The notes beneath the pieces are model-generated. The model saw only the letters and a program-made list of their open reading frames with translations. It made no database searches and was not told the DNA's origin. Position numbers and translations under genes: made by a program. A DNA stretch of 64,000 nucleotides from Deltaproteobacteria bacterium (GTDB lineage: Bacteria > Desulfobacterota > Binatia > DP-6), in the NCBI GenBank assembly GCA_005888095.1, contig VBKF01000140.1:4602-68601 (forward strand), written 5' to 3'. Every line of letters begins with the position of its first letter. The stretch's first letter is position 1. Shown in pieces: positions 6,279-52,582 of the stretch.

Positions 6279-6284
6279 GGCGGC

Positions 6285-7586: not shown

Positions 7587-8103
7587 AGGCCGGCCGCAGG
7601 TCGGCATCGTGATGGGCAGCGACAGCGACTGGGAGACGATGGAGGGGGCGGCGGAGCGTCTGGCAGCGTTCGAGATCCCCTACGAGGTCCAGGTCGTCTC
7701 GGCGCACCGCTCGCCGAAGGCCGTGATGCAATACGCGCAGAGCGCGCGGCGGCGCGGGCTCGGCGTGATCATCGCCGGCGCGGGCGGCGCGGCGCACCTG
7801 GGCGGCGTGGTTGCCGCCTACACGACGCTGCCGGTGATCGGTGTGCCCGTCGCGTCGACCCCGCTCCAGGGGCTCGACGCGCTGCTCGCCACCGTGCAGA
7901 TGCCGGGCGGCGTGCCGGTCGCCACCGTCGCCATCGGGCGGTCCGGGGCGGAGAATGCCGGCGTGCTGGCGGCGCAGATCCTGGCGCTTCGCAGCCGGCC
8001 GCTCCGCGAGCGGCTCGAGCGCTTCAAGACGGAGCTGGCCGAGAGCGTCGAGGGGAAGAACTTGCGCCTGCAGAGGAAGATCTCGCCTGAGAGCAACGAC
8101 TGA
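7573..8103 (+). CDS. purE: N5-carboxyaminoimidazole ribonucleotide mutase
   Basis: [14 protein letters not shown]...AHRSP...[17 protein letters not shown] PurE signature; overlaps the purD end by 14 nt. Confidence 0.9.
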
Positions 8104-8686
8104 GGCGGCGGTCGCGGCGCTCGCCGCCGGGGCGCTCGTCGTCTTCCCCACCGAGACGGTCTACGGCCTCGGCGCCGACGCGCTGTCGGCGGACGCGGTC
8201 GCGCGGCTCCTGGCCGTGCGAGGTCGAGAGGAGGGGAAGCCGATCCTGGTGCTGGTCGCGGACCTCGCGATGGCGGAGACGGTGGCGGCGGTGATCCCGC
8301 CGGCCGCGCGGCGGCTCGCGGCGCGCTTCTGGCCGGGGCCGCTGACTCTCGTGCTGCCGGCGCGCGCGCGCCTGCCGGCGCCGCTCACCGCGGGCTCCGG
8401 GACGATCGGCGTCCGCGTGCCGGGGCACCCCGTCGCCGCGGCGCTGGTCGCGGGCCTCGGCCGCCCGATCACGGCGCCGAGCGCCAATCCGCCGGGTCGG
8501 ACGCCCCCGAAGCTGATCGACGACGCGCGCGCCTGCTTCGGCGACGGTGTCGCCGTCTACCTCGACGGCGGCGAGCTCGCGGGCGGCGCCTCCACCGTCG
8601 CGGCGGTCGAGGAGGGGCGCGTGCGCGTGCTGCGCCCCGGGCGCGTGTCGAATGAGGCGCTCAGCCGGGCGCTCGAGGGCGACTGA
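8087..8686 (+). CDS. tsaC: L-threonylcarbamoyladenylate synthase (YrdC/Sua5 domain); start unresolved (no in-frame ATG/GTG/TTG after the purE stop; CTG at 8087 or a frameshift)
   Basis: [22 protein letters not shown]...GPLTLVL...SANPPG YrdC signature. The only in-frame ATGs (7841, 7955) would overlap purE by 148 to 262 nt. Confidence 0.6.
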
Positions 8687-8687
8687 G

Positions 8688-9878
8688 GTGGCCGTCGTCC
8701 GCCCGCTCCAGGGCCTTCGCTACGACCCGGCCCGCGCCGGCGACCTGGGCCTCGTGCTTGCCCCGCCTTACGACGTCATCACGCCGCGCGAGCAGGCCGA
8801 GCTCCACGCGCGGAGCCCGTACAACGTGATCCGGCTCATCCTGCCCGAGGAGGCGGACCGCGGCGCCGCAGCGGCGCGCACGCTCCGCGAGTGGGTGGCG
8901 CGGGGGCTCCTCGTGCGCGACCCGACGCCCGCGGTCTACCTCTACTCCCAGCGCTTCAGCCTGCCCGACGGCACGAGCCGCCGGCGCGACGGCCTCCTCT
9001 GCCGGCTCCGTCTCGAGAAGTTCGGCGCGGGCATCGTCCGCCCGCACGAGCGCACGCTGCCCGGCCCGAAGGCCGACCGCCTCGCGATCCTGCGCGCCAC
9101 GGGCGCCAACCTGAGCCCGATCTTCGGCCTCTACGCCCGCCCCGGCGAGCCCGTGCGCGCGCTCGTCGGGGCGCTCGGCGAGCCCGTCGTCGACGTGAAC
9201 GACTGGCACCAGCTCTGGCGGCTGACGGATCCCGCCGTGATCGCGCGCATCGAAGCCGCGCTCGCGCCCGAGACCATCATCATCGCCGACGGCCATCACC
9301 GCTACGAGACCGCGCTTCAGTACCGCGACGAGCAGCGCGGGAACGAGGCCGCGGCGTATGTCCTCGCCTACCTGGCCAACATGGAGGAGGAGGGGGTGGT
9401 GATCCTCCCCACGCACCGTCTGGTGCGGGGCCCGCTGCCGGCGCGCCTCGACGAGCGTCTCCGCGAGACATTCGAGGTGGAGCCGCTGCCGGCGGCGCGA
9501 CGTCGCGCGGGCGAGATCGACTGCGTGCTTCCCGACCGCCGCCTCCGCCTCCGTCCCCGGCCAGCCGCGCTCGCGCGCCTCGCTGCCCTGCCGGCAGTGC
9601 TCCGCACGCTCGACGTCGAGCTCCTGCACCGCGCGATCCTGGCGCCGATCCTCGGCGTCGACGCCGCCGTCCTCGAGTTCACGCACGACGACGACGAGGC
9701 GGCCGACGCCGTCGCGGCCGGGCATGCGGCGGCCGCCTTCCTCCTGAACCCGCCGTCGATCGCCGCGGTGCGCGCGGTGTGCCTGGCGGGCGAGCTGATG
9801 CCCGAGAAGTCGACCTACTTCTACCCGAAGCTCGCGACCGGCCTCGTCCTCTCGCTCGTCGGGCCGCCGTGGGTGTGA
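8688..9878 (+). CDS. DUF1015 family protein
   Basis: GTG at 8688 overlaps the tsaC stop; VRPLQGLRYD...LAPPYDVITPREQAELHARSPYNVIRLIL...ADGHHRYETAL matches the DUF1015 signature. Confidence 0.7.
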   Translation: MAVVRPLQGLRYDPARAGDLGLVLAPPYDVITPREQAELHARSPYNVIRLILPEEADRGAAAARTLREWVARGLLVRDPTPAVYLYSQRFSLPDGTSRRRDGLLCRLRLEKFGAGIVRPHERTLPGPKADRLAILRATGANLSPIFGLYARPGEPVRALVGALGEPVVDVNDWHQLWRLTDPAVIARIEAALAPETIIIADGHHRYETALQYRDEQRGNEAAAYVLAYLANMEEEGVVILPTHRLVRGPLPARLDERLRETFEVEPLPAARRRAGEIDCVLPDRRLRLRPRPAALARLAALPAVLRTLDVELLHRAILAPILGVDAAVLEFTHDDDEAADAVAAGHAAAAFLLNPPSIAAVRAVCLAGELMPEKSTYFYPKLATGLVLSLVGPPWV

Positions 9879-37194: not shown

Positions 37195-37215
37195 GTCGTC
37201 GCTGTAGTCGCGCGG

Positions 37216-37335
37216 CGGCGGGCGGGGCCGGGGGCCGGCGCTCCGCGCTCTCGCCGGTCATCGACGCCGCGGCCACGGGCCCACCGCGTGTCCGGCTCGA
37301 GAGGTCGCGGCGGCCCCCGGCCCCGCCCACCGCCG
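37216..37335. repeat. long-range GC-rich inverted repeat (GGGCGGGGCCGGGGGCCG ... CGGCCCCCGGCCCCGCCC) forming a large potential stem-loop downstream of the thiolase gene
   Basis: Read directly; ~18-bp arms separated by ~65 nt. Confidence 0.4.
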
Positions 37336-37368
37336 CGGGTCACGACAACGCCGGCCCCCGCTCGATAC

Positions 37369-37548
37369 TCCTCTACTGGAGACGAGTGGAGATGTCCTCG
37401 AAGCGCAGCCTGCACGTGCGAAGGGCCGCGAGACCCGAGCCCCGGGCGGGGGTGGCCCCCGCCGCGATCTCTCGAGCCGGACGCGCAGGTCGGCCCTGGT
37501 CGAGGCGTCGATGACCGGCGAGAAGGTGAGCGGAGTGAGCTCGCCCGC
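37369..37548 (+). repeat. direct repeat copy 1 (~180 bp; ~97% identical to copy 2 over the first ~140 bp, then diverging)
   Basis: TCCTCTACTGGAGACGAGTGGAGATGTCCTCGAAGCGC...CCCGGGCGGGGGTGGCCCCCGCC...GGTCGAGGCG recurs at 38383; it contains a GC hairpin and a conserved ~40-codon arginine-rich frame with a GGAG before the ATG. Confidence 0.7.
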
Positions 37549-37575
37549 ATCACCAAGCTAACTGTGAACTGTGGC

Positions 37576-37761
37576 ATGCCGCTGGTCGCGAAGAGCAATG
37601 AGATCTTCGCGCGAGATCCGGAAGTCTTAGCGGGCAGCAAAGAGGCGTACCTCACCTCAGAGATCCAGTGGATCTTGGGTGGATCTAAAAACCGTAGTAA
37701 ATACAATGGGTTAGGCTTGCACCGTCTCGGACCCCATGTTACGGTTAGGCCGTCTCGGTGA
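37576..37761 (+). CDS. hypothetical 61-aa ORF inside the low-GC islet (MPLVAKSNEIFARDPEVLAGSKEAYLTSEIQWILGGSKNRSKYNGLGLHRLG...)
   Basis: In-frame ATG at 37576 in the ~50% GC segment; no clear Shine-Dalgarno; overlaps palindromic GATC-containing motifs. Confidence 0.25.
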   Translation: MPLVAKSNEIFARDPEVLAGSKEAYLTSEIQWILGGSKNRSKYNGLGLHRLGPHVTVRPSR

Positions 37762-37796
37762 TCAGCGCAACCTTCTAGCAAGAAAGAGGGCCAGCG

Positions 37797-38354
37797 ATGG
37801 CGGAAAAGGCGAACCCATTTCGCGACGCGCTCTACGATGCGTTAGGGAGGAGAGGAGTCCGTTGGGTGCGGGACTTTGGCGGGGGGCGGCACGCCGAACT
37901 CTACACGCGCGAGGATCGGTGGCTTGCTCTCCTTGTCCAAAAGACCCTGTCCGCCCAGCCCTGGTGGAACATTCCGCACTACTTCGAAGAGCTACACGCG
38001 CTAGAACAAGAGCATCCGGCATACCTGGTCGTCGAAGTCTTCCAAGACGACCCGCAGGGTGGCACCGTGCTCACCGGAAAGGAGCTTGAGCCGCTGTTCA
38101 TGGCGGGCTCCGCAGACCGCTTCAGAAATGTGAAGGTGCTGCCGAGCGATCTCAGCGCCGGAACATACCTCAGGGGAGCCGAGCGTATGGCGGACTTCAT
38201 CCAGGCGCTTCTGACCGAGCTTCCGCCGGAACCAGGGCTTACACCCACCCAGCTCATTCCTGCGTCGCCACGCCGCCGGCGGCGCAGTCGATGGATGCGG
38301 GAGCTCTTCGGGGAAGAGGATAGCCAGAGCCTCGATCTCCGAGACAAGGATTGA
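37797..38354 (+). CDS. hypothetical protein of unknown function, atypical (lower-GC) codon usage
   Basis: 185 aa with an AGAAAGAGGG Shine-Dalgarno; mixed A/T third positions unlike neighbours; a possible degenerate nuclease-like core (…VRDFGGGRHAELYTREDRWLALLVQK…YLVVEVFQDD…) is speculative. Confidence 0.6.
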   Translation: MAEKANPFRDALYDALGRRGVRWVRDFGGGRHAELYTREDRWLALLVQKTLSAQPWWNIPHYFEELHALEQEHPAYLVVEVFQDDPQGGTVLTGKELEPLFMAGSADRFRNVKVLPSDLSAGTYLRGAERMADFIQALLTELPPEPGLTPTQLIPASPRRRRRSRWMRELFGEEDSQSLDLRDKD

Positions 38355-38382
38355 AGGAGCCGACGTGATGCTCGCGACGCCG

Positions 38383-38562
38383 TCCTCTACTGGAGACGAG
38401 TGGAGATGTCCTCGAAGCGCCGCCTGCACGTGCGAAGGGCCGCGAGGCCCGAGCCCCGGGCGGGGGTGGCCCCCGCCGCGATCTCTCGAGCCGGACGCGC
38501 AGCTCGGCCGTGGTCGAGGCGAGAATAACCGGCGAGAGCGTGAGCGGAGGGGGCCACCCCCG
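38383..38562 (+). repeat. direct repeat copy 2
   Basis: See copy 1; differs by four substitutions in the core and then diverges (…GGCGAGAATAACCGGCGAGAGCGTGAGCGGAGGGGGCCACCCCCGCCCGGGG). Confidence 0.7.
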
Positions 38563-38586
38563 CCCGGGGCGAGCGTCCTACAGCCC

Positions 38587-40229: not shown

Positions 40230-40958
40230 TCAGAAGCGGAAAGGGGCGGTGCGGAGAGTCAGATCGGCAGCAGCGAGCGCCCGGGGGGTGTCGATGTTGA
40301 CCCAGCGGGCCGGGGTCAGAAAACCGTAAACCGACATCCCGGCGGCCAACAGCTTGACATAGGTGGTGCGGATCACGCTGTAGGCCGCGTCGGGTTCCAT
40401 CCACCCGAAGATATCCGGCTCGAACACGTGGAGGCCGGGGAACATGAAGCCGCGGAAGGTTCCCTCGACCCCGGGCGGCAGCCCGACGACACGCCGCACC
40501 CGGTCCTCGGCATCGAGCTCGATGAGGCCGTAGCGCGCGGCTTCCGGGTCGGGTCGCACCACCATCGTCGCCAGGGCGCCGCGGGCCCGATGGAAGGCGA
40601 CGACGTCCTCCAGGTGGAGCTCGAGGAGGCTGTCGCCGTTCACCACCACGAACGGCTCCCCCCCGAGCAATGGCTCGGCACGCTTGATGCCGCCGCCCGT
40701 GTCGAGGATCGGATCCTCCCAGGAGTATTGGATGCGGAGCCCGAAGCGACGACCGTCACCGAGGCGCTCCTCGATCGCGTGGCCCAGGTGATGGAGGTTG
40801 ATCACCACCTCGCGGATGCCGCCGGCGTGCAGGAACTCCAGGATGTGCTCGAGCAGCGGCCGCCCCGCGACCGGGAGGAGCGGCTTCGGCGTCGTGTCGG
40901 TGAGCGGCGCGAGGCGCGTCCCCCGCCCCGCGGCGAGCACCATGGCGCGACGGATCAC
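40230..40958 (-). CDS. sugar-1-phosphate nucleotidyltransferase (MurU-like)
   Basis: MVLAAGRGTRLAPLTDTTPKPLLPV nucleotidyltransferase signature; GTG overlaps the upstream kinase stop (GTGA). Confidence 0.7.
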   Translation of the reverse strand: MIRRAMVLAAGRGTRLAPLTDTTPKPLLPVAGRPLLEHILEFLHAGGIREVVINLHHLGHAIEERLGDGRRFGLRIQYSWEDPILDTGGGIKRAEPLLGGEPFVVVNGDSLLELHLEDVVAFHRARGALATMVVRPDPEAARYGLIELDAEDRVRRVVGLPPGVEGTFRGFMFPGLHVFEPDIFGWMEPDAAYSVIRTTYVKLLAAGMSVYGFLTPARWVNIDTPRALAAADLTLRTAPFRF

Positions 40959-42055
40959 GCCGGCCGCTCCTCGCCGAGCTCCGGCACCCAGGCGCCGACC
41001 CGCGCGGCTGCCGTCGCCAGCGCGGGCTCGGCGCGGAGCATCCGGCGCGCGACGCCGTAGACCGCCGGCAGGTAGGCGAGGTAGCCGGGCTTCCCCTTGA
41101 CGCGTTCGAGGAAGTAGAACCGACCGATCACCTTGAGCGCCCGCTGCAGCGCGCACCGGCGGTAGCGCTCGGCGAAGCCCGGGGCCACGGGCACGCCGGC
41201 GGCCGCTCGACCCTCGACGAATCGCTCGGTGAGCGACGCCTCGAGCGCCGGGGGGACGAGCTCCGCGGTGGTGCGGTCGGTCAGGAGCGAAGCCAGGTCG
41301 TAGGCGTCGGGGGCGAGGAGCGCGTCCTGGAAGTCCAGGATCCTGAGCCGGCCATCCTGCACGTGGAGGTTCCAGGCGTGGAAGTCGCGATGCGCGAGCA
41401 CCGGTGTGGCGCGCTCGAACGGCTCGGCGAGCGGCGCCAGCGCCTCGAGGAGCGCCGCGCGCTCGGCGGCGGGGAGCCGGTGCCCGTGGCGGGTCTCGAT
41501 GCCGTGCTCGACGAAGTGCTCGAGCTCCCAGCGTGCCAGCCGGCCGTCGAACCGCTGGCGGAACGCGTAGCAGGCGGGCGCGGGACGCTGCGCGCCCGCG
41601 GCCTGGAGCGCAACCAGCAGGTCGACCGCCGCGCCGAACAATTCGGACACGCGCGCCGCGTCGGCGCGCGCCGCGGCCCAGAGCGTGGTGTCGCCGACAT
41701 CCTCGAGGAGCAGGAAGGTGGGGGTCTGATGATAGACGGCAGGGACCGGGAGGCCGCAGCCGCCGAGATAGCGGCCGACGTTGACGAACGGCAGCTCGTC
41801 GCCGCCCGCCACGCCGCCGATCTCCTCCGAGCCGAGCGGCAGGCGATCGGCGCCGAGCAGCATCGCGACCGCCGTCGGCGCCTCGGCGGCGCCGGCCAGC
41901 CGCAGGCGCACGTAGCGCCGGGTGGACGCGTCGCCCGCGAGCGGCTCGGCGGCGACGATGCGGGCGCCCGCGCCGAACGCCGCCCGCACGGCCGGCGCGA
42001 GCGCCTCGAGCGGCATCGGTTCCGACATCGCCCGAAGAGGCGCGTACCAGAGCAT
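40955..42055 (-). CDS. aminoglycoside-phosphotransferase-fold kinase (AmgK-like anomeric sugar kinase)
   Basis: HRDFHAWNL (HxDxxxxN) catalytic loop and a DFQDA Mg-binding motif; pairing with the nucleotidyltransferase mirrors AmgK/MurU. Confidence 0.6.
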   Translation of the reverse strand: MLWYAPLRAMSEPMPLEALAPAVRAAFGAGARIVAAEPLAGDASTRRYVRLRLAGAAEAPTAVAMLLGADRLPLGSEEIGGVAGGDELPFVNVGRYLGGCGLPVPAVYHQTPTFLLLEDVGDTTLWAAARADAARVSELFGAAVDLLVALQAAGAQRPAPACYAFRQRFDGRLARWELEHFVEHGIETRHGHRLPAAERAALLEALAPLAEPFERATPVLAHRDFHAWNLHVQDGRLRILDFQDALLAPDAYDLASLLTDRTTAELVPPALEASLTERFVEGRAAAGVPVAPGFAERYRRCALQRALKVIGRFYFLERVKGKPGYLAYLPAVYGVARRMLRAEPALATAAARVGAWVPELGEERPA

Positions 42056-42139: not shown

Positions 42140-42496
42140 ATGAAGTTCCAGTACGTTCCCGTGCTGATCGCGTTCGGGATCGGGGGGCTGGTGGTGGCGG
42201 TGTTCATCGCCGCCGGCATGTTCCTCGGGCCACGCCGCAGCTCGCCCGTCAAGACCACCGCGTTCGAGTGCGGCAATCCCCCGAGCGGTCCTGCGTGGGG
42301 CCGCTTCTCGGTGAAGTTCTACCTCACCGCCATCCTCTTCATCGTGTTCGACGTCGAGGTGGTGTTCATGTACCCGTGGGCGGTCCTCTTCCGTCCGCTC
42401 GGCGTCTTCGGCTTCGTCGAGATGAGCGTCTTCATCCTCGTGCTCGCGCTCGGGCTCGTCTACGTGTGGCGCAAGGGCGCGCTCGAGTGGGACTGA
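42140..42496 (+). CDS. nuoA: NADH-quinone oxidoreductase subunit A
   Basis: 118-aa 3-transmembrane protein with FECG...KFY...FDVE...FMYPW motifs. Confidence 0.85.
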   Translation: MKFQYVPVLIAFGIGGLVVAVFIAAGMFLGPRRSSPVKTTAFECGNPPSGPAWGRFSVKFYLTAILFIVFDVEVVFMYPWAVLFRPLGVFGFVEMSVFILVLALGLVYVWRKGALEWD

Positions 42497-42523
42497 CGGC
42501 GCGCGCGACGCGCCGATCGCTGC

Positions 42524-43039
42524 ATGACCCAAGCGGACCTACTTGATCGGCTGCCCGCGATCCTCCCCGCCAGCGCGCTCCAGGGGGGCGAGCTCGTCCG
42601 CGGGCAGGCCATCGCCCGGGTCGACCGCGCCGTGATCCGGGAGGCGCTCGCGGCGCTCCGCGACCATCCCGAGACGCGCTTCGACATGCTCACGGATCTG
42701 ACCGTCGTCGACTACCTGGGGCGCGCGCCGCGCTTCGAGGTGGTCTACCAGCTCTACTCGCTCGGCCGGAACCACCGCCTCCGCGTGAAGGCGGCGGTCC
42801 CGGAAGAGGATCCGCTCGTCCCCTCCGTCTCGTCGCTCTGGAAGGCCGCGCTCTGGGCCGAGCGCGAGGCGTGGGACATGTTCGGCATCCGTTTCGCCGG
42901 GCACCCCGACCTGCGGCGCATCCTCATGTACCCGGAGTTCGAGGGCCACCCGCTGCGCAAGGACTACCCCCTCATGCGCCGCCAGCCGCTGGTGCCCGAG
43001 CGCGATCCGCTCGAGCGGCCGTGGTCCCCGCGGGCATGA
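42524..43039 (+). CDS. nuoC: NADH-quinone oxidoreductase subunit C (30 kDa)
   Basis: NuoC-like (…TDLTVVDY…FEVVYQLYS…EREAWDMFGIRFAGHPDLRRIL…). Confidence 0.8.
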   Translation: MTQADLLDRLPAILPASALQGGELVRGQAIARVDRAVIREALAALRDHPETRFDMLTDLTVVDYLGRAPRFEVVYQLYSLGRNHRLRVKAAVPEEDPLVPSVSSLWKAALWAEREAWDMFGIRFAGHPDLRRILMYPEFEGHPLRKDYPLMRRQPLVPERDPLERPWSPRA

Positions 43040-43104
43040 GCGTGAGCGAAGAATACTGATGAGCGTGAGCGAAGAATACTGATGAGCGTGAGCGAAGAAT
43101 ACTG
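43036..43104 (+). repeat. perfect 3 x 23-bp tandem repeat ATGAGCGTGAGCGAAGAATACTG at the nuoC/nuoD junction
   Basis: Read directly; the nuoC stop lies in copy 1 and the nuoD ATG is the start of a truncated 4th copy; each unit encodes a mini-ORF MSVSEEY-stop whose TGA overlaps the next ATG. Confidence 0.8.
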
Positions 43105-44331
43105 ATGAGCGCGGCGCGGGCGCCGGGAGCGGTGACACCGGAGCGCGTTGTCGAGGCCGATCCGACGTCGGAGGTGATGGCGCTCCAGATGGGGCCGTCG
43201 CACCCCGCGTCGCATGGCACCATCAAGTTCAACCTCCGGCTCGACGGCGAGACGATCCTCGACGTCGACGTCGAGATCGGCTACCTCCACCGCGGTTTCG
43301 AGAAAATGTGCGAGCAGGGGACGTGGAACCACGTCTTCCCCTACGCCGATCGGCTGAACTACGCCTCCCCGCTGCTCAACAACGTGGGCTTCGCGCTCGC
43401 GGTCGAGCAGCTCGCCGGCATCACGGCGCCCGAGCGCTGCCAGTACATCCGGGTGATCACCGGCGAGATGTCGCGCGTCACCGACCACCTCACCTGTCTC
43501 GGCATGGCGGCCAACGAGATCGGCGCGATCTCGGCCGGCTTCTACATGCTCGAGGCGCGCGAGTTCCTCTACGACCTGGTCGAGGCGGTCACCGGGGCGC
43601 GGCTCACCGTGACCTACTGCCGGCTCGGCGGGGTCGTGAAGGACCTGCCCGCCGACATGGCCGAGCGCACGCGCTTCGCGCTCAAGCAGATCCGCCGCGT
43701 CCTCGCCGACTGCGACCGGCTCCTGTCCCGCAACCGCATCTTCGTCGATCGCATGGTCGGCGTCGGGAAGCTCGCGCAGGCCGACGCGATCTCGTGGGGC
43801 CTCACCGGCCCGCTGCTGCGCGCCACCGGCGTGCCGTACGACGTGCGCAAGGCCGAGCCCTACCTCGTCTACGACCGGATGGACTTCGAGGTGCCGACCG
43901 GCACGTCGGGCGACAACTACGATCGCTTCATGGTGCGCTTCGCCGAGCTGGAGCAGAGCATGCGCATCATCGAGCAGGCGCTCGCCCGCATCCCCCCCGG
44001 ACCGATCCTGGCCGACGACCCGCGCTTCGTGCTGCCGCCGAAGCAGGAGGTCTACACGACCATCGAGGGGCTCATGAACCACTTCAAGCTCGTCATGGAG
44101 GGCCAGAAGGTGCCCGCCGGCGAGGTCTACGTGGCCACCGAGGGGGGCAACGGCGAGCTCGGCTTCTACCTGGTGAGCGACGGCAGCGGCCGGCCCTACC
44201 GCGTCCGCGTGCGACCTCCCTGCTTCTACGGGATGGCGGCGCTCGGCGAGATGCTGCGCGGGCACATGGTGGCGGACATCATCACCACCTTCGGCCAGGT
44301 CAACATGATCGGGGGCGAGTGTGACCGCTGA
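43105..44331 (+). CDS. nuoD: NADH-quinone oxidoreductase subunit D (49 kDa)
   Basis: MGPSHPASHGTIKF...IGYLHRGFEKM NuoD N-terminal signature; 408 aa. Confidence 0.9.
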   Translation: MSAARAPGAVTPERVVEADPTSEVMALQMGPSHPASHGTIKFNLRLDGETILDVDVEIGYLHRGFEKMCEQGTWNHVFPYADRLNYASPLLNNVGFALAVEQLAGITAPERCQYIRVITGEMSRVTDHLTCLGMAANEIGAISAGFYMLEAREFLYDLVEAVTGARLTVTYCRLGGVVKDLPADMAERTRFALKQIRRVLADCDRLLSRNRIFVDRMVGVGKLAQADAISWGLTGPLLRATGVPYDVRKAEPYLVYDRMDFEVPTGTSGDNYDRFMVRFAELEQSMRIIEQALARIPPGPILADDPRFVLPPKQEVYTTIEGLMNHFKLVMEGQKVPAGEVYVATEGGNGELGFYLVSDGSGRPYRVRVRPPCFYGMAALGEMLRGHMVADIITTFGQVNMIGGECDR

Positions 44332-44812
44332 GGGCCCGCGCTTCTCCGACGCCGTCCTCGTCGAGTACCGGGCGATCCTCGCCCGCTACCCCGAGCGCCG
44401 CGCGGCCCTGCTGCCGACGCTCTGGCTCGCGCAGCGCGAGTTCGGGTGGCTCTCGCTGCCGGTCCTCGAGTACGTGGCCGAGCTGATGGAGCTGCCGCTC
44501 GCGTGGGTGACCGCCACCGCGTCGTTCTACACCATGTACTGGAAGCAGCCCCCGGGCCGCTGGCACCTCCAGGTCTGCCGCAACCTGCCGTGCGCGCTGC
44601 GCGGGGCGGACGACGTCCGGGCCGCGCTCGAACAGCGCCTCGGCATCTGTCCCGGCGAGAAGACCGCGGACGGACGGTTCTCGCTCGAGGAGGTCGAGTG
44701 CCTCGCGTCCTGCGACACGGCGCCCGTGCTCCAGGTCAACAACTCGGAGTACCACGAGAACCTGACCGTCGAGCGGACGCTCGCCCTGATCGAGCGCCTG
44801 GCCAGCACCTAG
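44321..44812 (+). CDS. nuoE: NADH-quinone oxidoreductase subunit E (24 kDa, 2Fe-2S)
   Basis: CRNLPC...CLASCDTAP cysteine ligands (thioredoxin-like [2Fe-2S]); GTG start overlapping nuoD. Confidence 0.8.
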   Translation: MTAEGPRFSDAVLVEYRAILARYPERRAALLPTLWLAQREFGWLSLPVLEYVAELMELPLAWVTATASFYTMYWKQPPGRWHLQVCRNLPCALRGADDVRAALEQRLGICPGEKTADGRFSLEEVECLASCDTAPVLQVNNSEYHENLTVERTLALIERLAST

Positions 44813-44813
44813 C

Positions 44814-45911
44814 GTGACGCCCGACGTCGCCATCGCGGCGGCGAAGGTCCTCTTCGCCCTCTTCCTCGCGCTCCAGGTGATGGGCCTGGGGGTGTTCTTC
44901 GAGCGCAAGGTGAGCGCGCTGATCCAGGACCGGATCGGCGCCAACCGCGCCGCCATCTTCGGCTTTGCCGGGCTCGGCCTGGTGAACACGCTGGTCGCCG
45001 ACCCGATCAAGTTCCTCCTGAAGGAGGACATCACGCCGGCCGAGGCCGACCGGCTGCTCCACTTCCTGGCGCCGTGCGCGAGCCTCGTGCCCGCGCTCGC
45101 CACCTTCGCCGTGGTGCCGTTCGGCGACGTGCTCGAGGTGGGCGGGCGCGTGATCAACCTGCAGGGGGCGGAGCTGAGCGTCGGCCTCCTCTTCGTGCTC
45201 GCGATGGCGTCGCTCGGCGTGTACGGCGTGGTGCTGGGCGGCTGGGCGTCGAACAACCGCTGGTCGCTGCTCGGCGGCATCCGCGGCTCGGCGCAGATGA
45301 TCTCCTACGAGATCGCCATGGGGCTCGCGCTGATCGGCGTCGTCCTCACCTACAACACGCTCGACCTCCAGGAGATCGCGCGCGCCCAGGGCCGCCTCGT
45401 GTGGGGATGGCTGCCCGCCTGGGGCATCCTCTACCAGCCGCTCGCCTTCATCATCTTCCTCGTCGCCGGCGTCGCGGAGAGCAAGCGCATCCCTTTCGAC
45501 CTCCCGGAGAGCGAGTCCGAGCTGGTGAGCGGGTACTTCACCGAGTACTCCGGCGCCAAGCACCTGATGTTCATGATGAGCGACTTCGTCGAGGTCGTGC
45601 TCGTCGCCGCCCTCGTGACGACGCTCTTCTTCGGCGGGTGGCAGGTCCCGTATCTCGGGCGCGACGGCTTCCACTTCCCCGGCGGCGCGACCCTCGGGCT
45701 GCCGTCGCTCGCCGTCGTCGTCCTCCAGGTCACGGCCTTCGCGCTGAAGGTGATCGCCTTCACCTGGCTCCAGATCGTCATCCGCTGGACGCTCCCGCGC
45801 TTTCGCTACGACCAGCTCATGCGGCTCGGGTGGCAGGGCTTGCTGCCGCTCTCGCTCGCCAACGTGATGATCTCGGCACTGGTCGTGCTGCTCGTGGAGC
45901 GGGGCGCGTGA
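44814..45911 (+). CDS. nuoH: NADH-quinone oxidoreductase subunit H
   Basis: NuoH/ND1 motifs (…GWASNNRWSLLGGIRGSAQMISYEIAMG…AESKRIPFDLPESESELVSGYFTEYSG…). Confidence 0.9.
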   Translation: MTPDVAIAAAKVLFALFLALQVMGLGVFFERKVSALIQDRIGANRAAIFGFAGLGLVNTLVADPIKFLLKEDITPAEADRLLHFLAPCASLVPALATFAVVPFGDVLEVGGRVINLQGAELSVGLLFVLAMASLGVYGVVLGGWASNNRWSLLGGIRGSAQMISYEIAMGLALIGVVLTYNTLDLQEIARAQGRLVWGWLPAWGILYQPLAFIIFLVAGVAESKRIPFDLPESESELVSGYFTEYSGAKHLMFMMSDFVEVVLVAALVTTLFFGGWQVPYLGRDGFHFPGGATLGLPSLAVVVLQVTAFALKVIAFTWLQIVIRWTLPRFRYDQLMRLGWQGLLPLSLANVMISALVVLLVERGA

Positions 45912-46402
45912 GCGCGCTCATCTTCCTCCTCCTGGCCGCGCTGGTCCTGGCGGCGGCGCTGACGGTCGTGGTGCACCCGAGCCCGGTCTACAGCGCGTGC
46001 GCGCTGGTCGTGACGCTCTTCCTCCTCTCGGTCTTCTTCGTCGCCCTCGATGCGCAGCTCGTCGCGGTGCTCCAGGTGATCGTCTACGCCGGGGCGATCG
46101 TCGTGCTCTTCCTCTTCGTCATCATGCTGCTCAACCTGACCCAGACGGAGCCGCGCCCGACGGCCGGCGCGCCGCTGGTCGCCGTCGCCGTGGGGGGCGG
46201 CGTCGCCGTCGTGGCGCTGGTGGCCACCGTGCTCCGCCGGGTCGCGCCGCCGGGTACGCCGGTGCTGCCCGCAGGCTTCGGCGACACCGCGGCGCTCGGC
46301 CGCCGGCTGTTCACGGCCTATCTGCTGCCCTTCGAGCTGACGTCGGTCCTGCTGCTCGTCGCCATCGTCGGGGCGGTGGGGCTGGCCAAGCGGAGGCCGT
46401 GA
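45908..46402 (+). CDS. nuoJ: NADH-quinone oxidoreductase subunit J
   Basis: 164-aa ND6-like membrane protein; GTG overlaps the nuoH stop. Confidence 0.8.
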
Positions 46403-46403
46403 C

Positions 46404-46715
46404 GTGCCGCCGACGGCGCCCCTCACCTGGTACCTCGGGCTCAGCGCCGTGCTGTTCGCGATCGGCGCCATCGGCGTGCTCATCCGCCGCAACGTCATCG
46501 TCATCTTCATGGCGATCGAGCTCATGCTGAACGCCGTCAACCTGACCTTCGTGGCGCTCGCCCGGAGCCTCGGCTCGATGGACGGGCAGGTGATCGTCTT
46601 CTTCGTGATGACCGTCGCCGCCGCCGAGGCGGCCGTCGGCCTCGCGATCATCATCGCGCTCTTCCGCAACGGCGAGACGATGAACGCGGACGAGCTGGTG
46701 ACGCTGCGGTGGTGA
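46404..46715 (+). CDS. nuoK: NADH-quinone oxidoreductase subunit K
   Basis: ~103-aa ND4L-like protein (…[29 protein letters not shown]…). Confidence 0.85.
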
Positions 46716-48592
46716 CGCCGACGACGCTCCTCCGCTGGATCATCCTCCTGCCGGCCGCGGGCGTGCTCTTCCACGTCTTCCTCGGGCGGCGGGCGACGGC
46801 GGCCGTGAAGCTCGTCGGCCCGGGGCTCGTGGGCGCGGCGTTCGCGGTGGCCGTGGCGGCCGCGCTCCGGCTCCGCGCGCTGCCCGAGGGCGGGCTCCTC
46901 CGCGACCACCTCTACACCTGGATCGCCGCGGGGCCCTTCCGCGCCGAGGCCGCGCTCCGGTTCGACGCACTCTCGGCGGTCATGGCGCTCGTGGTGACGG
47001 GCGTCGGCTTTCTCATCCACGTCTACTCGGTCGGCTACATGCACGGCGATCGGGGCTTCGCGCGCTACTTCGCCTACCTGAACCTGTTCACGACCGCGAT
47101 GCTCATCCTCGTGCTCGCCGACAACCTGCCGCTCCTCTTCGTCGGCTGGGAGGGCGTGGGGCTCTGCTCCTATCTCCTGATCGGCTTCTGGTACGAGAAG
47201 ACGGAGAACGCCGCGGCGGGGAAGAAGGCCTTCCTCGTGAACCGCATCGGCGACGCGGGCTTCCTCCTCGGCCTCTTTCTCCTCGCGTGGACGCTCGGCC
47301 GCCACGGCTACTGGACCCTCGACTTCGCGGCGATCGAGCGTCACCTGGACGTTCTCGCGACGGCGACCGTCGGCGGCTGGCCGGTGCCGCTCGTGGTCGG
47401 CCTCCTCCTCTTCGTCGGTGCGACGGGGAAGTCGGCCCAGATCCCCCTCTACGTCTGGCTGCCCGACGCCATGGCGGGCCCGACGCCCGTCTCCGCGCTC
47501 ATCCACGCCGCCACCATGGTCACGGCGGGTGTCTACATGATCGCGCGCCTGCACGCCGTCTATGCGCTGGCGCCCGCCGCGCTCACGGTCGTGGCCGTGG
47601 TCGGCGCCGCGACCGCGCTCTTCGCCGCGGTCATCGCCACCGCGCAGACCGACATCAAGCGCGTGCTCGCCTACTCGACCGTCAGCCAGCTCGGCTACAT
47701 GTTCCTCGGCCTCGGCGTCGGCGCGACGGGCGCCGCCATCTTCCACCTGGTGACGCACGCCTTCTTCAAGGCGCTGCTCTTCCTGGGCGCCGGGAGTGTG
47801 ATCCACGGCCTCGGCGGCGAGCAGGACATGCGCCGCATGGGGGCTCTCCGGACGCGCCTGCCGGTCACGTTCTGGACGATGACCGCGGCCGCGCTGGCCA
47901 TCGCCGGCGTGCCGCCGCTCTCGGGCTTCTTCAGCAAGGACGAGATCTTATACAGCGCGTTCGCTGGCGCGAACGCGCGGCCCATCCTCGGCGTCGTCGG
48001 CCTCGTCGCGGCGGCGCTCACCGCCTACTACACGGGGCGGCTCGTCTGCCTGACCTTCCTCGGGGAATCGCGCGTGTCGCCCGAGGCCGCGCACCACCTC
48101 CACGAATCGCCGCCGGTGATGACCGTGCCCCTCGCCGTGCTGGCGGTCGGCGCCGTCGTCGGGGGCTTCCTCCCCGTGCCGGCGCTCCTCGGTCACACGG
48201 GCGAAGGAGGACCACCCCTGGCGCTCATGGCGCTCGCCACCGGGCTCGCTGCAGGCGGCCTCTGGCTCGCGTACCAGCTCCACGTCGTCCGCCCAGACGT
48301 CCCCGAAGCGATCGCGGCGCGCCTCGGCGGCTTCTATGGGCTCGTGCGCGACAAGTTCCGCGTCGACGAGCTCTACGACGCGCTCGTCGTCCGGCCGCTG
48401 TTCGCGGCCGCCGACCTCGGGGCGCGCGGCATCGACCCGAAGCTCATCGACGGCGTCGTGAACGGCACGGGCGTGCTCGTGGCCGCGACGAGCGGGCTCT
48501 GGCGCCGGGTCCAGACCGGCAACGTCCAGCACTACGCGCTCTCCTTCCTGATCGGCGCCCTCCTGCTGCTCGGGTACTACGTCGGGCGCTGA
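46709..48592 (+). CDS. nuoL: NADH-quinone oxidoreductase subunit L
   Basis: 627-aa ND5-like antiporter-type subunit (…[19 protein letters not shown]…). Confidence 0.9.
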
Positions 48593-50112
48593 TGGCGACG
48601 GTGCCGCTGCTCACGCTGCTCGTCTTCGCGCCGCTCGTGGGCGCGGTGCTCCTGGCGCTCCTCCCGCGCGAGCCGCTCGCCGGCGTGCGGCGCGCGGCGC
48701 TCGTCTTCTCGCTCGTCCCGTTCGCGCTCTCGCTCTGGATGCTCGGCCGCTTCCGCCCCGGCGAGGCGGAGTTCCAGCTGGTCGAGCGCGCGGCGTGGAT
48801 CCCCGCCTGGGGCATCGAGTACCGCCTCGGGGTGGACGGCGTGAGCCTCTTCCTCGTCCTCCTGACGGCCTTTCTCACGCCGCTCGTCGTGCTCGCCTCG
48901 TGGGGCGACATCCACCGCCGCGTGAAGGAGTTCTTCGCGCTGCTCCTCGTGCTCGAGACCGGCATGCTCGGCACCTTCCTCGCCCTCGACCTCTTCCTCT
49001 TCTACGTCTTCTGGGAGGTCATGCTCGTCCCGATGGCGTTCCTGATCGGCGTCTGGGGCGGGCCCCAGCGCGTCTACGCGGCGATCAAGTTTGTCCTCTA
49101 CACGATGACCGGCAGCCTCCTCATGCTGGTCGGCATCCTCTACCTCGCCTGGCAGGTGAAGGTGCAGACGGGCGCCTTCGCCTTCGGCTACGAACGCTTT
49201 CTCGCCCTCCACCTGGGCGCGCGCGAGCAGCTCTACCTGTTCGCGGCCTTCGCCCTGGCCTTCGCCATCAAGGTGCCGCTCTTCCCGTTCCACACCTGGC
49301 TTCCCGACGCGCACGTCGAGGCGCCGACCGGCGGCTCGGTGATTCTCGCCGGGGTGCTGCTCAAGATGGGCACGTACGGCTTCCTCCGCTTCGCGATCCC
49401 GCTCTTCCCGGCGGCGGTCGCGACCGCGTCGCCCGCCGTCGTGGCGCTCGCCGTCGCGGGCATCGTCTACGGCGCGTTGGTGGCGACGGTGCAGCCCGAC
49501 CTGAAGAAGCTCGTCGCGTACTCCTCGGTGTCGCACTTGGGCTTCGTGATGCTCGGGCTCTTCGCGCTGACGCCGACGGCGGTGTCGGGCGGCGTCTACC
49601 AGATGCTGAACCACGGGCTCTCGACCGGCGCGCTCTTCCTGCTGGTCGGCATGATCTACGAGCGCCGGCACACGCGCATGATCGCCGACTTCGGGGGGCT
49701 GTGGACCGCGGTGCCGGTCTATGCCGCCTGCTTCCTCGTCGTCATGCTCGCCTCGGTCGGGCTCCCGGGCCTCAACGGCTTCGTCGGCGAGTTCCTGATC
49801 CTGCTCGGCGCCTTCGGCCCGTGGCCCTGGGCGACGGCGGTGGCCACCAGCGGCGTCGTGCTGGGGGCGCTCTACCTCCTCTGGATGTACGAGCGCGTCA
49901 TCTTCGGGCCGCTCGTCCGCCCGGAGAACGCCGCGCTCGAGGACCTCCGCGGACGCGAGCTCGCCGTGCTCGTGCCGATCATCGCCCTCTGCTTCGTGAT
50001 GGGCCTCTACCCGGCGCCCTTCCTCAGGCGCATGCAGCCGTCGGTCGACCGCATCCTGGCACGCGTCCAGAGCGTGGAGGCGCCACGGCTCGCGGCCGGG
50101 GGACGGCGATGA
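48592..50112 (+). CDS. nuoM: NADH-quinone oxidoreductase subunit M
   Basis: ND4-like; ATG overlaps the nuoL stop (TGATG). Confidence 0.9.
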   Translation: MATVPLLTLLVFAPLVGAVLLALLPREPLAGVRRAALVFSLVPFALSLWMLGRFRPGEAEFQLVERAAWIPAWGIEYRLGVDGVSLFLVLLTAFLTPLVVLASWGDIHRRVKEFFALLLVLETGMLGTFLALDLFLFYVFWEVMLVPMAFLIGVWGGPQRVYAAIKFVLYTMTGSLLMLVGILYLAWQVKVQTGAFAFGYERFLALHLGAREQLYLFAAFALAFAIKVPLFPFHTWLPDAHVEAPTGGSVILAGVLLKMGTYGFLRFAIPLFPAAVATASPAVVALAVAGIVYGALVATVQPDLKKLVAYSSVSHLGFVMLGLFALTPTAVSGGVYQMLNHGLSTGALFLLVGMIYERRHTRMIADFGGLWTAVPVYAACFLVVMLASVGLPGLNGFVGEFLILLGAFGPWPWATAVATSGVVLGALYLLWMYERVIFGPLVRPENAALEDLRGRELAVLVPIIALCFVMGLYPAPFLRRMQPSVDRILARVQSVEAPRLAAGGRR

Positions 50113-51572
50113 CGCCGATCGACGTCGGCCCCTTCGCCGCCCACTGGGAGGTGGCGCTGCCCGGGCTCCTGGTCGCCGCGACGGCGATGCTGGTCATGGT
50201 CGCCGACCTGGTCAGCACCGACCCGGATCGCGAGTCGCTCGCCGGCGTCGCCCTCGTCGGGCTGGCGACGGCGGCGGGGGCGGCGCTCTGGCTGTGGGCG
50301 GGCGGGAACGGCGCCGGCGGCTTCGGGGAGACGCTCCGCGCCGACCGCTACGCGCTCTTCTTCGCGCTCCTCCTGATCGCCGCCACGGCCCTCACCATCC
50401 TCCTCTCCGTCGACTTCCTCCGCCTGCACGCGCTGCCGGCGGGCGAGTACTACGCGCTCATGCTGCTCTCGACGAGCGGCATGGTGTTCATGGCCGCGGC
50501 CAACGACCTGATCGTGATCTTCCTCGCGCTCGAGATCATGTCGGTGGCGGTCTACGTGCTGGTCGGCATGCTCCGGCGCGAGGTCCGCTCGAACGAGGCG
50601 TCGCTCAAGTACTTCCTGCTCGGCGCCTTCGCGACCGGGTTCCTGCTCTACGGGATCGCCTTCTTCTACGGCGCCACGGGGAGCACCCGGCTCGACGTCG
50701 TGGCGCAGGCGGTCGCACGCGACGGGCTCACGCCCTTCCTGCTCCTCGGTCTCGCCCTCGTTCTGGTCGGCTTCGGGTTCAAGGTGGCGCTCATCCCGTT
50801 CCACGTCTGGACGCCCGACGTCTACGAGGGCGCCCCGACGGCGGTGACGGCCTTCATGGCGGTCGGCGTCAAGGCGGCGGCCTTCGCCGCCTTCGCGCGC
50901 GTGTTCGCGGGTGCGCTCGTGTCGGTGGCGGCGAGCTGGACGGGCGTCCTCTGGGTGCTCGCGGCGCTCACCATGACGGTCGGCAACGTGGGCGCCGTGA
51001 CGCAGCGGAACGTCAAGCGGATGCTCGCCTACTCGAGCATCGCGCACGCCGGCTACGCGCTCGTGGGACTCGTGACCGCGACCAAGGCGGGCGAGGCCGC
51101 GCTCCTCTACTACCTCGTCGTCTATGCCGTGATGAACCTCGGTGCCTTCGGTGTGCTGATCGCGCTCGGCCGCCGCGGCGAGCCGAACGAGATGCTCCAG
51201 GACTTCGCCGGCGTCGGCTTCCGCCAGCCCGTGCTCGGGCTCACGATGGCCGTCTTCATGCTGTCGCTCGCCGGCATCCCGCCCACGGCGGGCTTCGCGG
51301 GCAAGTTCTACCTCTTCAGCGCCGCGGTGGACGCCGGCTACGTGGGACTCGCCGTGATCGGCGTGCTGAACAGCGTGATCTCGGTCTACTACTACCTCGG
51401 TGTCCTCGTGCAGATGTACATGACCGAGGGCACGCGCCCGATCGACGCCCCGGCGACGCGGCCGTACCTGCTGGCGACGATCCTGTTCGCAGGCGTCGCG
51501 ACGCTGCTGCTCGGCGTCTTCCCGTCGGGCACCATGGAGCTGGCGCGAGTCTCCGTGGCGTCGCTGCGGTAA
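50109..51572 (+). CDS. nuoN: NADH-quinone oxidoreductase subunit N
   Basis: ND2-like; ATG overlaps the nuoM stop. Confidence 0.9.
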   Translation: MTPIDVGPFAAHWEVALPGLLVAATAMLVMVADLVSTDPDRESLAGVALVGLATAAGAALWLWAGGNGAGGFGETLRADRYALFFALLLIAATALTILLSVDFLRLHALPAGEYYALMLLSTSGMVFMAAANDLIVIFLALEIMSVAVYVLVGMLRREVRSNEASLKYFLLGAFATGFLLYGIAFFYGATGSTRLDVVAQAVARDGLTPFLLLGLALVLVGFGFKVALIPFHVWTPDVYEGAPTAVTAFMAVGVKAAAFAAFARVFAGALVSVAASWTGVLWVLAALTMTVGNVGAVTQRNVKRMLAYSSIAHAGYALVGLVTATKAGEAALLYYLVVYAVMNLGAFGVLIALGRRGEPNEMLQDFAGVGFRQPVLGLTMAVFMLSLAGIPPTAGFAGKFYLFSAAVDAGYVGLAVIGVLNSVISVYYYLGVLVQMYMTEGTRPIDAPATRPYLLATILFAGVATLLLGVFPSGTMELARVSVASLR

Positions 51573-51739: not shown

Positions 51740-52582
51740 ATGCGACGCTCGATCCAGCTTCCGTTGCGCCCTCGGACCTGGGGCGGGGCCCGCGCGGGCG
51801 CCGGCCGCCCCGCCGGGGCGCGCCGCCGGGTCCCGCACCGTCGCCGCCCGCCGCACGAGGCGCGGTACCCGGTGCACGGCACCCTCCGCGTCCGGGCGGC
51901 GCTACCCTCCCTCCGCGGCGCTGGCGTCTTTCGCGCCGTCAGCGACGCGCTGGCCGCCTCCTCGCGCCGCGGCTTCCGCGTGCTCGAGTTCTCGGTCCAG
52001 TCCAACCACATCCACCTGCTCGTCGAGGCCGACGATCGCACCCGGCTCTCGCGCGGACTCCAGGGGCTGAAGATCCGCATCGCGCGGGCGGTGAACGGGA
52101 CGCTGCATCGCCGGGGGACCTTCTGGGCCGAGCGCTACCATGCCCGGGCGCTGGCGACGCCGCGGGAGGTCCGGACCGCGCTGGTCTATGTGCTGCGAAA
52201 CGGGCACAGGCACGGCACGTGCCGCCGCGGATTCGATCCGTGCTCGTCGGCGGCATGGTTCACGGGGTGGAAATGCTCGCGGCCTCGGCCCATCTGTCTG
52301 GCACCGGTCGTGCGGCCGCAGACGTGGCTCGCGTCGGTCGGGTGGCGCCGACATGGGCTCATCGGAATCGCGGAAGAACCGGTCCCCGCCGGGCGGGTAG
52401 CTCGGCGCGGAGCGCTGCCATGGTACGCCGGTCGACCCGCGGGCTGCTTCCCGCTTCCCCGCCGCAGGACGTGCGTCACACCCGCGACGCAGGGTCGAGG
52501 CATGCGAGGAGCGCGAGCAGCACGCGGTTCACCGGGACGGGCACGCCCGCACGCGCAGCGGCGCGCACGACGGCGCCGTTGA
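51740..52582 (+). mobile_element. IS200/IS605-like Y1 (HUH) transposase-like gene, solitary (possibly a domesticated REP-associated RAYT type); 3' end uncertain
   Basis: HUH motif SVQSNHIHLLVEA and a catalytic-Tyr region REVRTALVYVLRNGHRHG; no second transposase or obvious terminal inverted repeats; its 3' ~100 nt is antisense to the panE end. Confidence 0.5.

Follow-up and report, generated by a model that had tools for sequence, protein, structure and literature searches.

A ten-gene nuo cluster without nuoB, nuoF, nuoG and nuoI in a soil bacterium of the Binatia, probably one part of a dispersed complex I gene set

The window analysed here, meaning the whole 64-kb stretch of DNA, comes from a metagenome-assembled genome (MAG) of Candidatus Binatia (Binatota) from soil with 72% guanine plus cytosine (GC). 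Its proteins are found at NCBI as TMB42057-TMB42059, encoded by a contig of 71,154 bp, under the label MAG, Deltaproteobacteria bacterium. The window carries ten plus-strand genes for subunits of complex I in the order nuoA-C-D-E-H-J-K-L-M-N (positions 42140-51572), from which nuoB, nuoF, nuoG and nuoI are missing. The explanation that we favour, with a probability of roughly two in three, is a functional complex I whose genes are dispersed, with other loci supplying the missing subunits in trans. It is built on the identity, integrity and conservation of the ten genes and on the finding of a dedicated NuoB in relatives.

In canonical complex I electrons pass from NADH to the flavin mononucleotide of NuoF and then through a chain of iron-sulfur (Fe-S) clusters in NuoG, NuoI and NuoB (cluster N2) to quinone. 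The quinone pocket is formed by NuoD, NuoB and NuoH, and protons are translocated by NuoL, NuoM and NuoN and by NuoH, NuoA, NuoJ and NuoK. The window cluster would give every subunit of the membrane arm (A, H, J, K, L, M and N), subunits C and D of the quinone (Q) module and subunit E of the NADH-oxidising (N) module. NuoB, with its N2 cluster, would come from a locus of its own, and presumably NuoI, NuoG and NuoF likewise, so that a standard complex I would result. This supposes a nuoB in the window genome, the existence of nuoI, nuoF and nuoG elsewhere and the co-assembly of all the products.

Every one of the ten proteins matched its own complex I family in Pfam and no other, far above the cut-off (Oxidored_q4, Complex1_30kDa, Complex1_49kDa, 2Fe-2S_thioredx, NADHdh, Oxidored_q3, Oxidored_q2 and, three times, Proton_antipo_M). 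NuoC, D, E, H, K, L, M and N also reached the curated NCBIfam cut-offs (Table 1), and between Pfam and NCBIfam all seven membrane-arm subunits were matched. The third-position GC of the ten open reading frames (ORFs) is 0.94-1.0. NuoD aligns over its full length with the 49-kDa subunits of solved complex I structures (E=3.6e-106), and its quinone-ligand histidine (SHPASHG) and tyrosine (DRLNYAS) align with those of NDUFS2. Its C-terminus, GGECDR, is poor in cysteine like that of the aligned complex I 49-kDa subunit (...GEIDR), and the hydrogenase-type cysteine pair is not there. A relative of [NiFe] hydrogenases or Mrp antiporters was considered and rejected, since for NuoD, L, M and N the Nuo-specific NCBIfam models far outscore those of Mrp, Hyf and Fpo. 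The Nuo11 enzyme (A-B-C-D-H-I-J-K-L-M-N) was also rejected as an identity; the window cluster is like it in being without F and G, but unlike Nuo11 it keeps E and is without B and I. Compared with the canonical 14-subunit enzyme (Thermus thermophilus Nqo1-14, E. coli Nuo) the ten subunits are the same in family and length. The likeness extends to the histidine and tyrosine of NuoD, the [2Fe-2S] ligands of NuoE and the three antiporter-like subunits, whereas the window genes do not form one operon, with B, F, G and I missing from about 80 kb around.

The cluster itself is compact. Gene junctions range from -11 to +27 nt, the exception being a 65-nt spacer between nuoC and nuoD that is made of a tandem repeat. 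The pairs D/E (by 11 nt), H/J, K/L, L/M and M/N overlap, which makes translational coupling plausible. A gap of 27 nt separates nuoA from nuoC, only 1 nt lies between the nuoE stop codon and nuoH, and nuoJ starts on a GTGA overlapping the nuoH stop; the canonical slots are thus without space for nuoB, for nuoF and nuoG and for nuoI. Scans for sigma-70 promoters and terminators over the cluster gave nothing above chance.

The missing genes were not found in the rest of the window either. A six-frame motif scan of the 64 kb revealed no NuoB motif CC..E/PGCPP, no NuoI double CxxCxxCxxxCP and no NuoF GGAGF or SCGxCxPCR, and tblastn of the window with NuoB and NuoI (three types of each), NuoF and NuoG taken from relatives gave no match at E<1e-4. 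By Pfam and NCBIfam the ten proteins contain no Oxidored_q6, Fer4, Complex1_51K or NADH-G domain. Among 40 other ORFs of the window Pfam detected housekeeping functions only and no candidate electron-input module. These genes include alr, purH/D/E, thyX, the large NAD-dependent glutamate dehydrogenase, thiI, gcvH, thiolase, patatin, an APH/NTP-transferase pair, panE, LemA/TPM, GST and a multicopper oxidase. No extra nuo genes appeared on further contigs of this organism, which reach about 7.8 kb beyond the left end of the window and about 9 kb beyond the right end. A sequence-only reading of this DNA had called the same ten genes at the same coordinates, with B, F, G and I absent and no room for them, and it was right on both counts. 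It had allowed that its nuoC or nuoE might turn out to be nuoB or nuoI; both are genuine NuoC and NuoE, each protein matching one family end to end. An annotation artefact of this sort, or fusions hiding the missing subunits, deserves next to no credence, as the matches are to single families and the B, I and F motifs occur in no frame.

The arrangement is a stable one. The identical ten-gene order was found in six independent assemblies of the window organism with 99-100% amino-acid identity, and the organism occurs in dozens of soil assemblies with the order unchanged. Relatives were sampled by a NuoD-based scan with one genome per species, and the loci of relatives and metagenome contigs that were compared are labelled L001-L230. 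The nearest species have a NuoD identity of 79-84% and about 70% GC. The order of the window, here called T1, is present in about 24 Binatia species representatives, complete chromosomes included (L019, L060 and L079), and is kept down to about 70% NuoD identity. About 11 Binatia have the order A-C-D-E-F-G-H-J-K-L-M-N (T3), in which nuoF and a short nuoG of 523 amino acids (aa) lie precisely between nuoE and nuoH, and at 19 Binataceae loci (T2; e.g. L026) A-C-D stand alone. Some T1 sub-variants are without L and M (L033, L039 and L040, A-C-D-E-H-J-K-N), and L055, from a high-GC organism closely related to that of the window, is without M (A-C-D-E-H-J-K-L-N). In view of this further break-up, gene dispersal appears to be a habit of the lineage. 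In 43 T1 and T2 relatives tblastn detected no homologue of B, I, F or G within flanks of up to 10 kb on each side. Single matches to the PGCPP and GGAGF motifs in L019, L018 and L015 lie within unrelated ORFs and were discarded as chance. In the long-read MAGs L020 (nuoH and nuoM) and L079 (nuoD) genes appeared as two adjacent high-scoring segment pairs in different frames, which are probably homopolymer sequencing errors and not pseudogenes.

Outside the Binatia, the Bdellovibrionota show the order C-D-E-F-G-H-J-K-L-M-N, without A, B and I, and Syntrophobacteraceae and Desulfosoma show A-B-C-D-H-I-J-K-L-M-N. Myxococcota loci (L059-L086) read A-B-C-D, a gap of about 1.7-2 kb, and H-I, the gap probably being a short nuoG. 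A separate E-F-J-K-L-M set on unassigned high-GC metagenome contigs (L155, L183, L185 and L191) may be the remainder of the Myxococcota nuo genes. A Myxococcota-type relative (L084, 2455-7157) has A-C-D-G-I without B, and several metagenome loci, e.g. L110 and L176, have no nuoI between H and J.

Neighbour-joining trees of NuoD+NuoH and of NuoC+NuoD, which are distance trees without support values, recovered the Binatia as a monophyletic group with the Bdellovibrionota group as sister. Among the Binatia T3 is basal, and T1 makes up a single clade with T2 nested in it. The NuoD/NuoH phylogeny proposed as a check in the sequence-only reading places the cluster in the Binatia clade. As its sister lineage T3 has nuoF-nuoG in the expected slot, the absence of F-G from the window cluster would be a derived removal, whether by relocation or by loss. 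In the simplest history nuoB and nuoI would have left the cluster first, once only, ahead of the split between the Binatia and Bdellovibrionota enzymes. The nuoF-nuoG block would have been removed next, also once, at the base of T1+T2, and later breaks would be lineage-specific. Since the distance trees have no support values, we infer this order of events. The presence of nuoE without nuoF, which had been regarded as an oddity, is an old and stable state of the whole clade and not of one genome.

It is for nuoB that relocation has direct support. Binatia also carry a separate 11-gene operon, A-B-C-D-H-I-J-K-L-M-N, without E, F and G, which was found upstream of a T3 cluster and on the high-GC Binatia contig L215. 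A search with the NuoB of this operon led to a second, standalone nuoB of 175-176 aa (Oxidored_q6), here called Bx. It belongs to the gene row Mrp/ApbC-DUF971-Mrp/ApbC-Fer2-FNR-like-NifU/IscU-Bx-Rrf2, which is followed by nuoA of the 11-gene operon; this row was seen directly upstream of the operon in L211-L214, L216, L218 and L219 (in L211 at 4268-9536). The L019 chromosome has the Bx row at 1.61-1.64 Mb and, about 1.5 Mb away, the T1 cluster at 3.09-3.11 Mb; here L211 (Bx) and L019 (T1) are taken as the same sequence from the equal size of their records (4,312,128 bp). One Bx-bearing contig equals the L060 T1 chromosome in size (5,193,919 bp). Moreover, the database clusters of Bx have 213 + 32 members (245), many of them on contigs of 4-5 Mb.

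Bx shares 60-68% identity with the NuoB encoded within the nuo clusters of Myxococcota and Syntrophobacteraceae, and NuoD and NuoH of the window are 58-61% identical to those of the same relatives. Between Bx and the NuoB of the 11-gene operon the identity is only 41-44%. The NuoB tree puts Bx within the group formed by Myxococcota and Syntrophobacteraceae, at a long distance from both the 11-gene type and a third type. Divergent T1 genomes have Bx sequences that are about 90% identical, and the CC...C...C motifs of the N2 ligands are kept. To judge from these sequence comparisons, the NuoB missing from the B-less enzyme is Bx, relocated and not lost, in relatives with the identical gene order, and the same presumably holds for the window genome, with a dedicated nuoB elsewhere. 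The sequence-only reading had offered a split operon as one of two possibilities. This is supported for nuoB, a dedicated copy of which lies elsewhere in the same-order relatives; F, G and a dedicated I were not located in T1. Its view that NuoE alone carries Fe-S in the complex is not warranted, as B exists elsewhere in relatives.

Because IscU, Rrf2 and Mrp genes share the row, we read the Fer2 and FNR-like genes beside Bx as likely partners in Fe-S assembly of the iron-sulfur cluster (ISC) type rather than as an alternative electron input. The Mrp/NBP35-type proteins of the row recall Ind1/NUBPL, the Fe-S assembly factor of eukaryotic complex I. The position of nuoB between IscU-like and Rrf2/IscR-like genes suggests that expression of the N2 subunit is tied to Fe-S supply.

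The earlier proposal to count nuo paralogue sets could be followed in Binatia relatives, where a second (11-gene) and a third set were found. Subunits of the 11-gene operon are 37% (D and H) to 50% (L and M) identical to those of the window, and compared with those of the relatives of the window cluster its NuoB is about 48% and its NuoI about 30% identical. In the T3 genome L087 (1-7704) about 5 kb separate the end of the operon from the B/I-less 12-gene cluster downstream, with GST, groES/groEL and a trypsin-like gene between the two nuo sets, a near-adjacency not seen in other genomes. The third set (L230, 6730-16617; L216, 1-4636) is a nuoA-B-C-D-I module without the membrane subunits H or J-N. 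Its neighbours are a NuoE-NuoF fusion of 677-707 aa, a Fer4 plus cyclic-nucleotide-binding protein and a Methyltransf_28 (NDUFAF7-like) protein. The NuoD of this module shares about 40% identity with that of each of the other two Binatia sets, and its NuoE-NuoF fusion is only 31-33% identical to NuoF. A NuoI-like gene near Bx in L216 was tried as a dedicated NuoI and rejected, as it belongs to the A-B-C-D-I module and is 94% identical to that of L230. The Binatia NuoI genes that were seen are only those of the 11-gene operon or of this module.

NuoE does not look like an abandoned subunit. Across 24 T1 NuoE sequences a conservation of at least 95% was seen at 49 positions, among them the four [2Fe-2S] cysteines. 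T1 pairs have a median ratio of NuoE to NuoD divergence, (1-idE)/(1-idD), of 1.48, against 1.55 in T3 pairs, which have nuoF alongside. These matching ratios indicate that NuoE without an adjacent nuoF is under normal constraint. To our knowledge no NuoE-type protein has been characterised that works without a NuoF-type flavoprotein, and on this ground a partner of NuoE probably exists in T1 genomes.

Several results count against a relocation of the whole set. Neither nuoF, nuoG nor a dedicated nuoI was present in T1 loci with flanks of up to 10 kb or in the seven Bx loci. In a protein search with T3 NuoF the best 120 matches were of T3 type and all at least 73% identical, so that T1 sequences would fall beyond them; the one match whose context was examined (P0047) is an in-cluster T3 gene. 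In a scan of metagenome DNA with a GC-rich back-translation of the 15-residue NuoF motif PTVVNNVETLAx[LVI]PW, the 120 loci listed included nine T3 nuoF and none of T1 type above 63% identity. An identity above that value was expected for a T1 nuoF from the 61-63% identity between T3 and Bdellovibrionota NuoF; the motif is common in other high-GC phyla, and one substitution in it would hide T1 sequences. In addition, L215 (GC 0.74) has the 11-gene operon without Bx upstream, so in the clade closest to the window Bx has a different location. No tie between L215 and the window species emerged from sample overlap or from tetranucleotide similarity, and the 11-gene NuoB of the window organism could not be chosen by amino-acid composition as NuoB is too conserved. 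A standalone nuoF (L118) and E-F-G sets (L119 and L170) were set aside as not specifically related to Binatia NuoF.

These results could be explained by subunit sharing, in which loci serving the 11-gene enzyme also provide the ten-gene set with NuoI and perhaps with a single pair of NuoF and NuoG. We think this quite unlikely. Binatia do carry the 11-gene operon, the high-GC member included, in one T3 genome it is only about 5 kb from the B/I-less cluster, the dedicated nuoB directly adjoins it, and the T1 and Bx loci examined hold no dedicated nuoI. A precedent is found in Syntrophobacter fumaroxidans, where N-module genes stand apart and one nuoEFG set may serve two membrane and Q sets (Spero et al., 2015, PMC4453560); there E, F and G travel together, whereas in the window cluster E has remained beside the membrane and Q genes. 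The sharing of B is contradicted by the conserved dedicated Bx, and the 11-gene operon is itself without E, F and G to lend. Its low identities (NuoI about 30% to that of the relatives, NuoD and NuoH 37% to those of the window) point to interfaces that diverged anciently.

Another explanation is that T1 and T2 truly lost NuoF and NuoG and that NuoE docks a non-orthologous electron-input partner, for instance another NuoF-like flavoprotein or a dehydrogenase module. The retained and constrained NuoE would fit such a variant complex, as would the lack of a T1-type nuoF among the loci listed in the scan that recovered nine T3 nuoF, T1+T2 species outnumbering T3 about 4:1 among the fetched loci. 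Genes for NuoE-NuoF fusions adjoin ferredoxin-like proteins on Binatia-related contigs, but the fusion is part of the separate A-B-C-D-I module and too distant from NuoF (see above). Campylobacter offers a known case of a modified input module (PMC4453560): in Campylobacter jejuni NuoE/NuoF are replaced by flavodoxin-accepting proteins, but these replacements lie within the operon and NuoG is kept, whereas the window cluster is without replacement genes. The window and its flanks hold housekeeping genes and no conserved candidate module beside the cluster. The absence of nuoF rests on 120 listed loci and on a motif in which one substitution would conceal T1 sequences, and without NuoG the known wire from flavin to NuoI would not exist. 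A variant complex is accordingly judged distinctly doubtful. A broader, mix-and-match form of these ideas is unlikely too, if somewhat easier to entertain. In it the T1/T2 complex I would possess a membrane arm, C, D, E and a dedicated NuoB of its own, and would either share NuoI and the flavoprotein/NuoG wire or replace NuoF/NuoG with a non-orthologous partner docking on NuoE. If it were true, this would be a natural complex I with a new electron-input solution, and a true absence of F and G would point to an undescribed electron-input module.

That the cluster is a decaying, non-functional leftover being replaced by the 11-gene enzyme is very improbable. The progressive gene loss across the clade (F-G, then E-N, L-M or M) could be taken in this sense, but the ten ORFs are intact with a strong coding signal and are 99-100% identical across many samples, the catalytic residues are kept, and NuoE evolves at the relative rate seen in clusters with nuoF. 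Moreover the dedicated NuoB is 90% conserved and the arrangement is stable over deep divergence.

Dispersed nuo gene sets in general are already documented (PMC3144371), and Degli Esposti called the complex I of Bdellovibrio 'split' (PMC4758237). The split nuo genes of the Bdellovibrionota, sister of the window cluster, are likewise without nuoB and nuoI; they keep F-G between E and H and are without A, whereas the window cluster keeps A and E and is without F-G. A 2025 survey described split and single-cluster complex I as mixed in most clades (bioRxiv 10.1101/2025.03.13.643058), and a genome survey of the Binatota recorded complex I as present and nothing further (PMC8262859). The T1 order appears to be undescribed for Binatia. 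What appears to be new in the pattern is that E is kept while F-G leave, that a dedicated nuoB has Fe-S assembly genes and a paralogous 11-gene operon as neighbours, and that the fragmentation is stepwise and class-wide. As calls of pathway completeness usually seek contiguous nuo operons, an abundant soil class can be scored as 'partial' though nuoB at least is encoded elsewhere. The graded natural series of break-up, with B and I gone first, then F-G, then E-N, L-M or M in sub-lineages, allows one to ask which subunit genes must stay together for assembly. It also raises the question why nuoE stays with nuoD and nuoH after its partner nuoF has left.

Table 1. Features of the nuo cluster and its surroundings in the window
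Feature	Position	Strand	Description
nuoA	42140..42496	+	118 aa, membrane subunit; Pfam Oxidored_q4 1.3e-38; ATG start, GGAGCTGG before it
nuoC	42524..43039	+	171 aa, 30-kDa Q-module subunit; Complex1_30kDa 2.1e-47; TIGR01961 146.5 bits (cut-off 122.45)
23-nt perfect tandem repeat ATGAGCGTGAGCGAAGAATACTG, 3 copies	43036..43111	+	From nuoC stop to nuoD start; 7-codon mini-ORF per unit
nuoD	43105..44331	+	408 aa, 49-kDa quinone-site subunit; TIGR01962 489 bits (cut-off 459)
nuoE	44321..44812	+	163 aa, thioredoxin-like [2Fe-2S] N-module subunit; 2Fe-2S_thioredx 1e-49; TIGR01958 164 bits (cut-off 142)
nuoH	44814..45911	+	365 aa; NADHdh 1.4e-102; NF004741 310.5 bits (cut-off 305)
nuoJ	45908..46402	+	164 aa; Oxidored_q3 1.8e-37
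nuoK	46404..46715	+	103 aa; Oxidored_q2 2.6e-27; NF004320 117.8 bits (cut-off 57)
nuoL	46709..48592	+	627 aa, antiporter-like, C-terminal extension; NF005141 709 bits (cut-off 556); Proton_antipo_N/M, NADH5_C
nuoM	48592..50112	+	506 aa; TIGR01972 626 bits (cut-off 264)
nuoN	50109..51572	+	487 aa, final gene of the cluster; TIGR01770 448 bits (cut-off 333)
Possible insertion element	37211-38586		Nested GC-rich inverted repeats
172-nt direct repeat	37369-37540 and 38383-38554		Two copies, 93% identical
ORF between the 172-nt repeats	37797-38354		185 aa; no Pfam match
APH-family kinase and NTP-transferase pair	40230-42055	-	AmgK/MurU-like by domain content; divergent, directly upstream of nuoA
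Y1_Tnp gene	51740-52582		280 aa, IS200/RAYT-like tyrosine transposase, 167 nt downstream of nuoN

The mini-ORF of the repeat between nuoC and nuoD reads MSVSEEY* and ends in TGATG, and the unit is much richer in A+T than the genome. The window has three copies, L001, L003 and L006 have two, L004 and L005 have one and L002 has none; in L002 the nuoC stop overlaps the nuoD start as ATGA. It can be suggested from these sequences that the copy number may tune re-initiation at nuoD. A search for repetitive extragenic palindromic (REP) elements found no abundant dispersed repeat family in the window.

Upstream of the cluster, the ORF between the two 172-nt repeats is missing between the thiolase and patatin genes in strain L004, and the whole element may be a small mobile insertion. 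The Y1_Tnp gene is present in L001, L006 and L226 and not in L003 and L227, so the 3' boundary of the cluster is a variable spot. The APH-family kinase and NTP-transferase pair at the other end of the cluster is syntenic in the T2 relative L015 (6437-8568).

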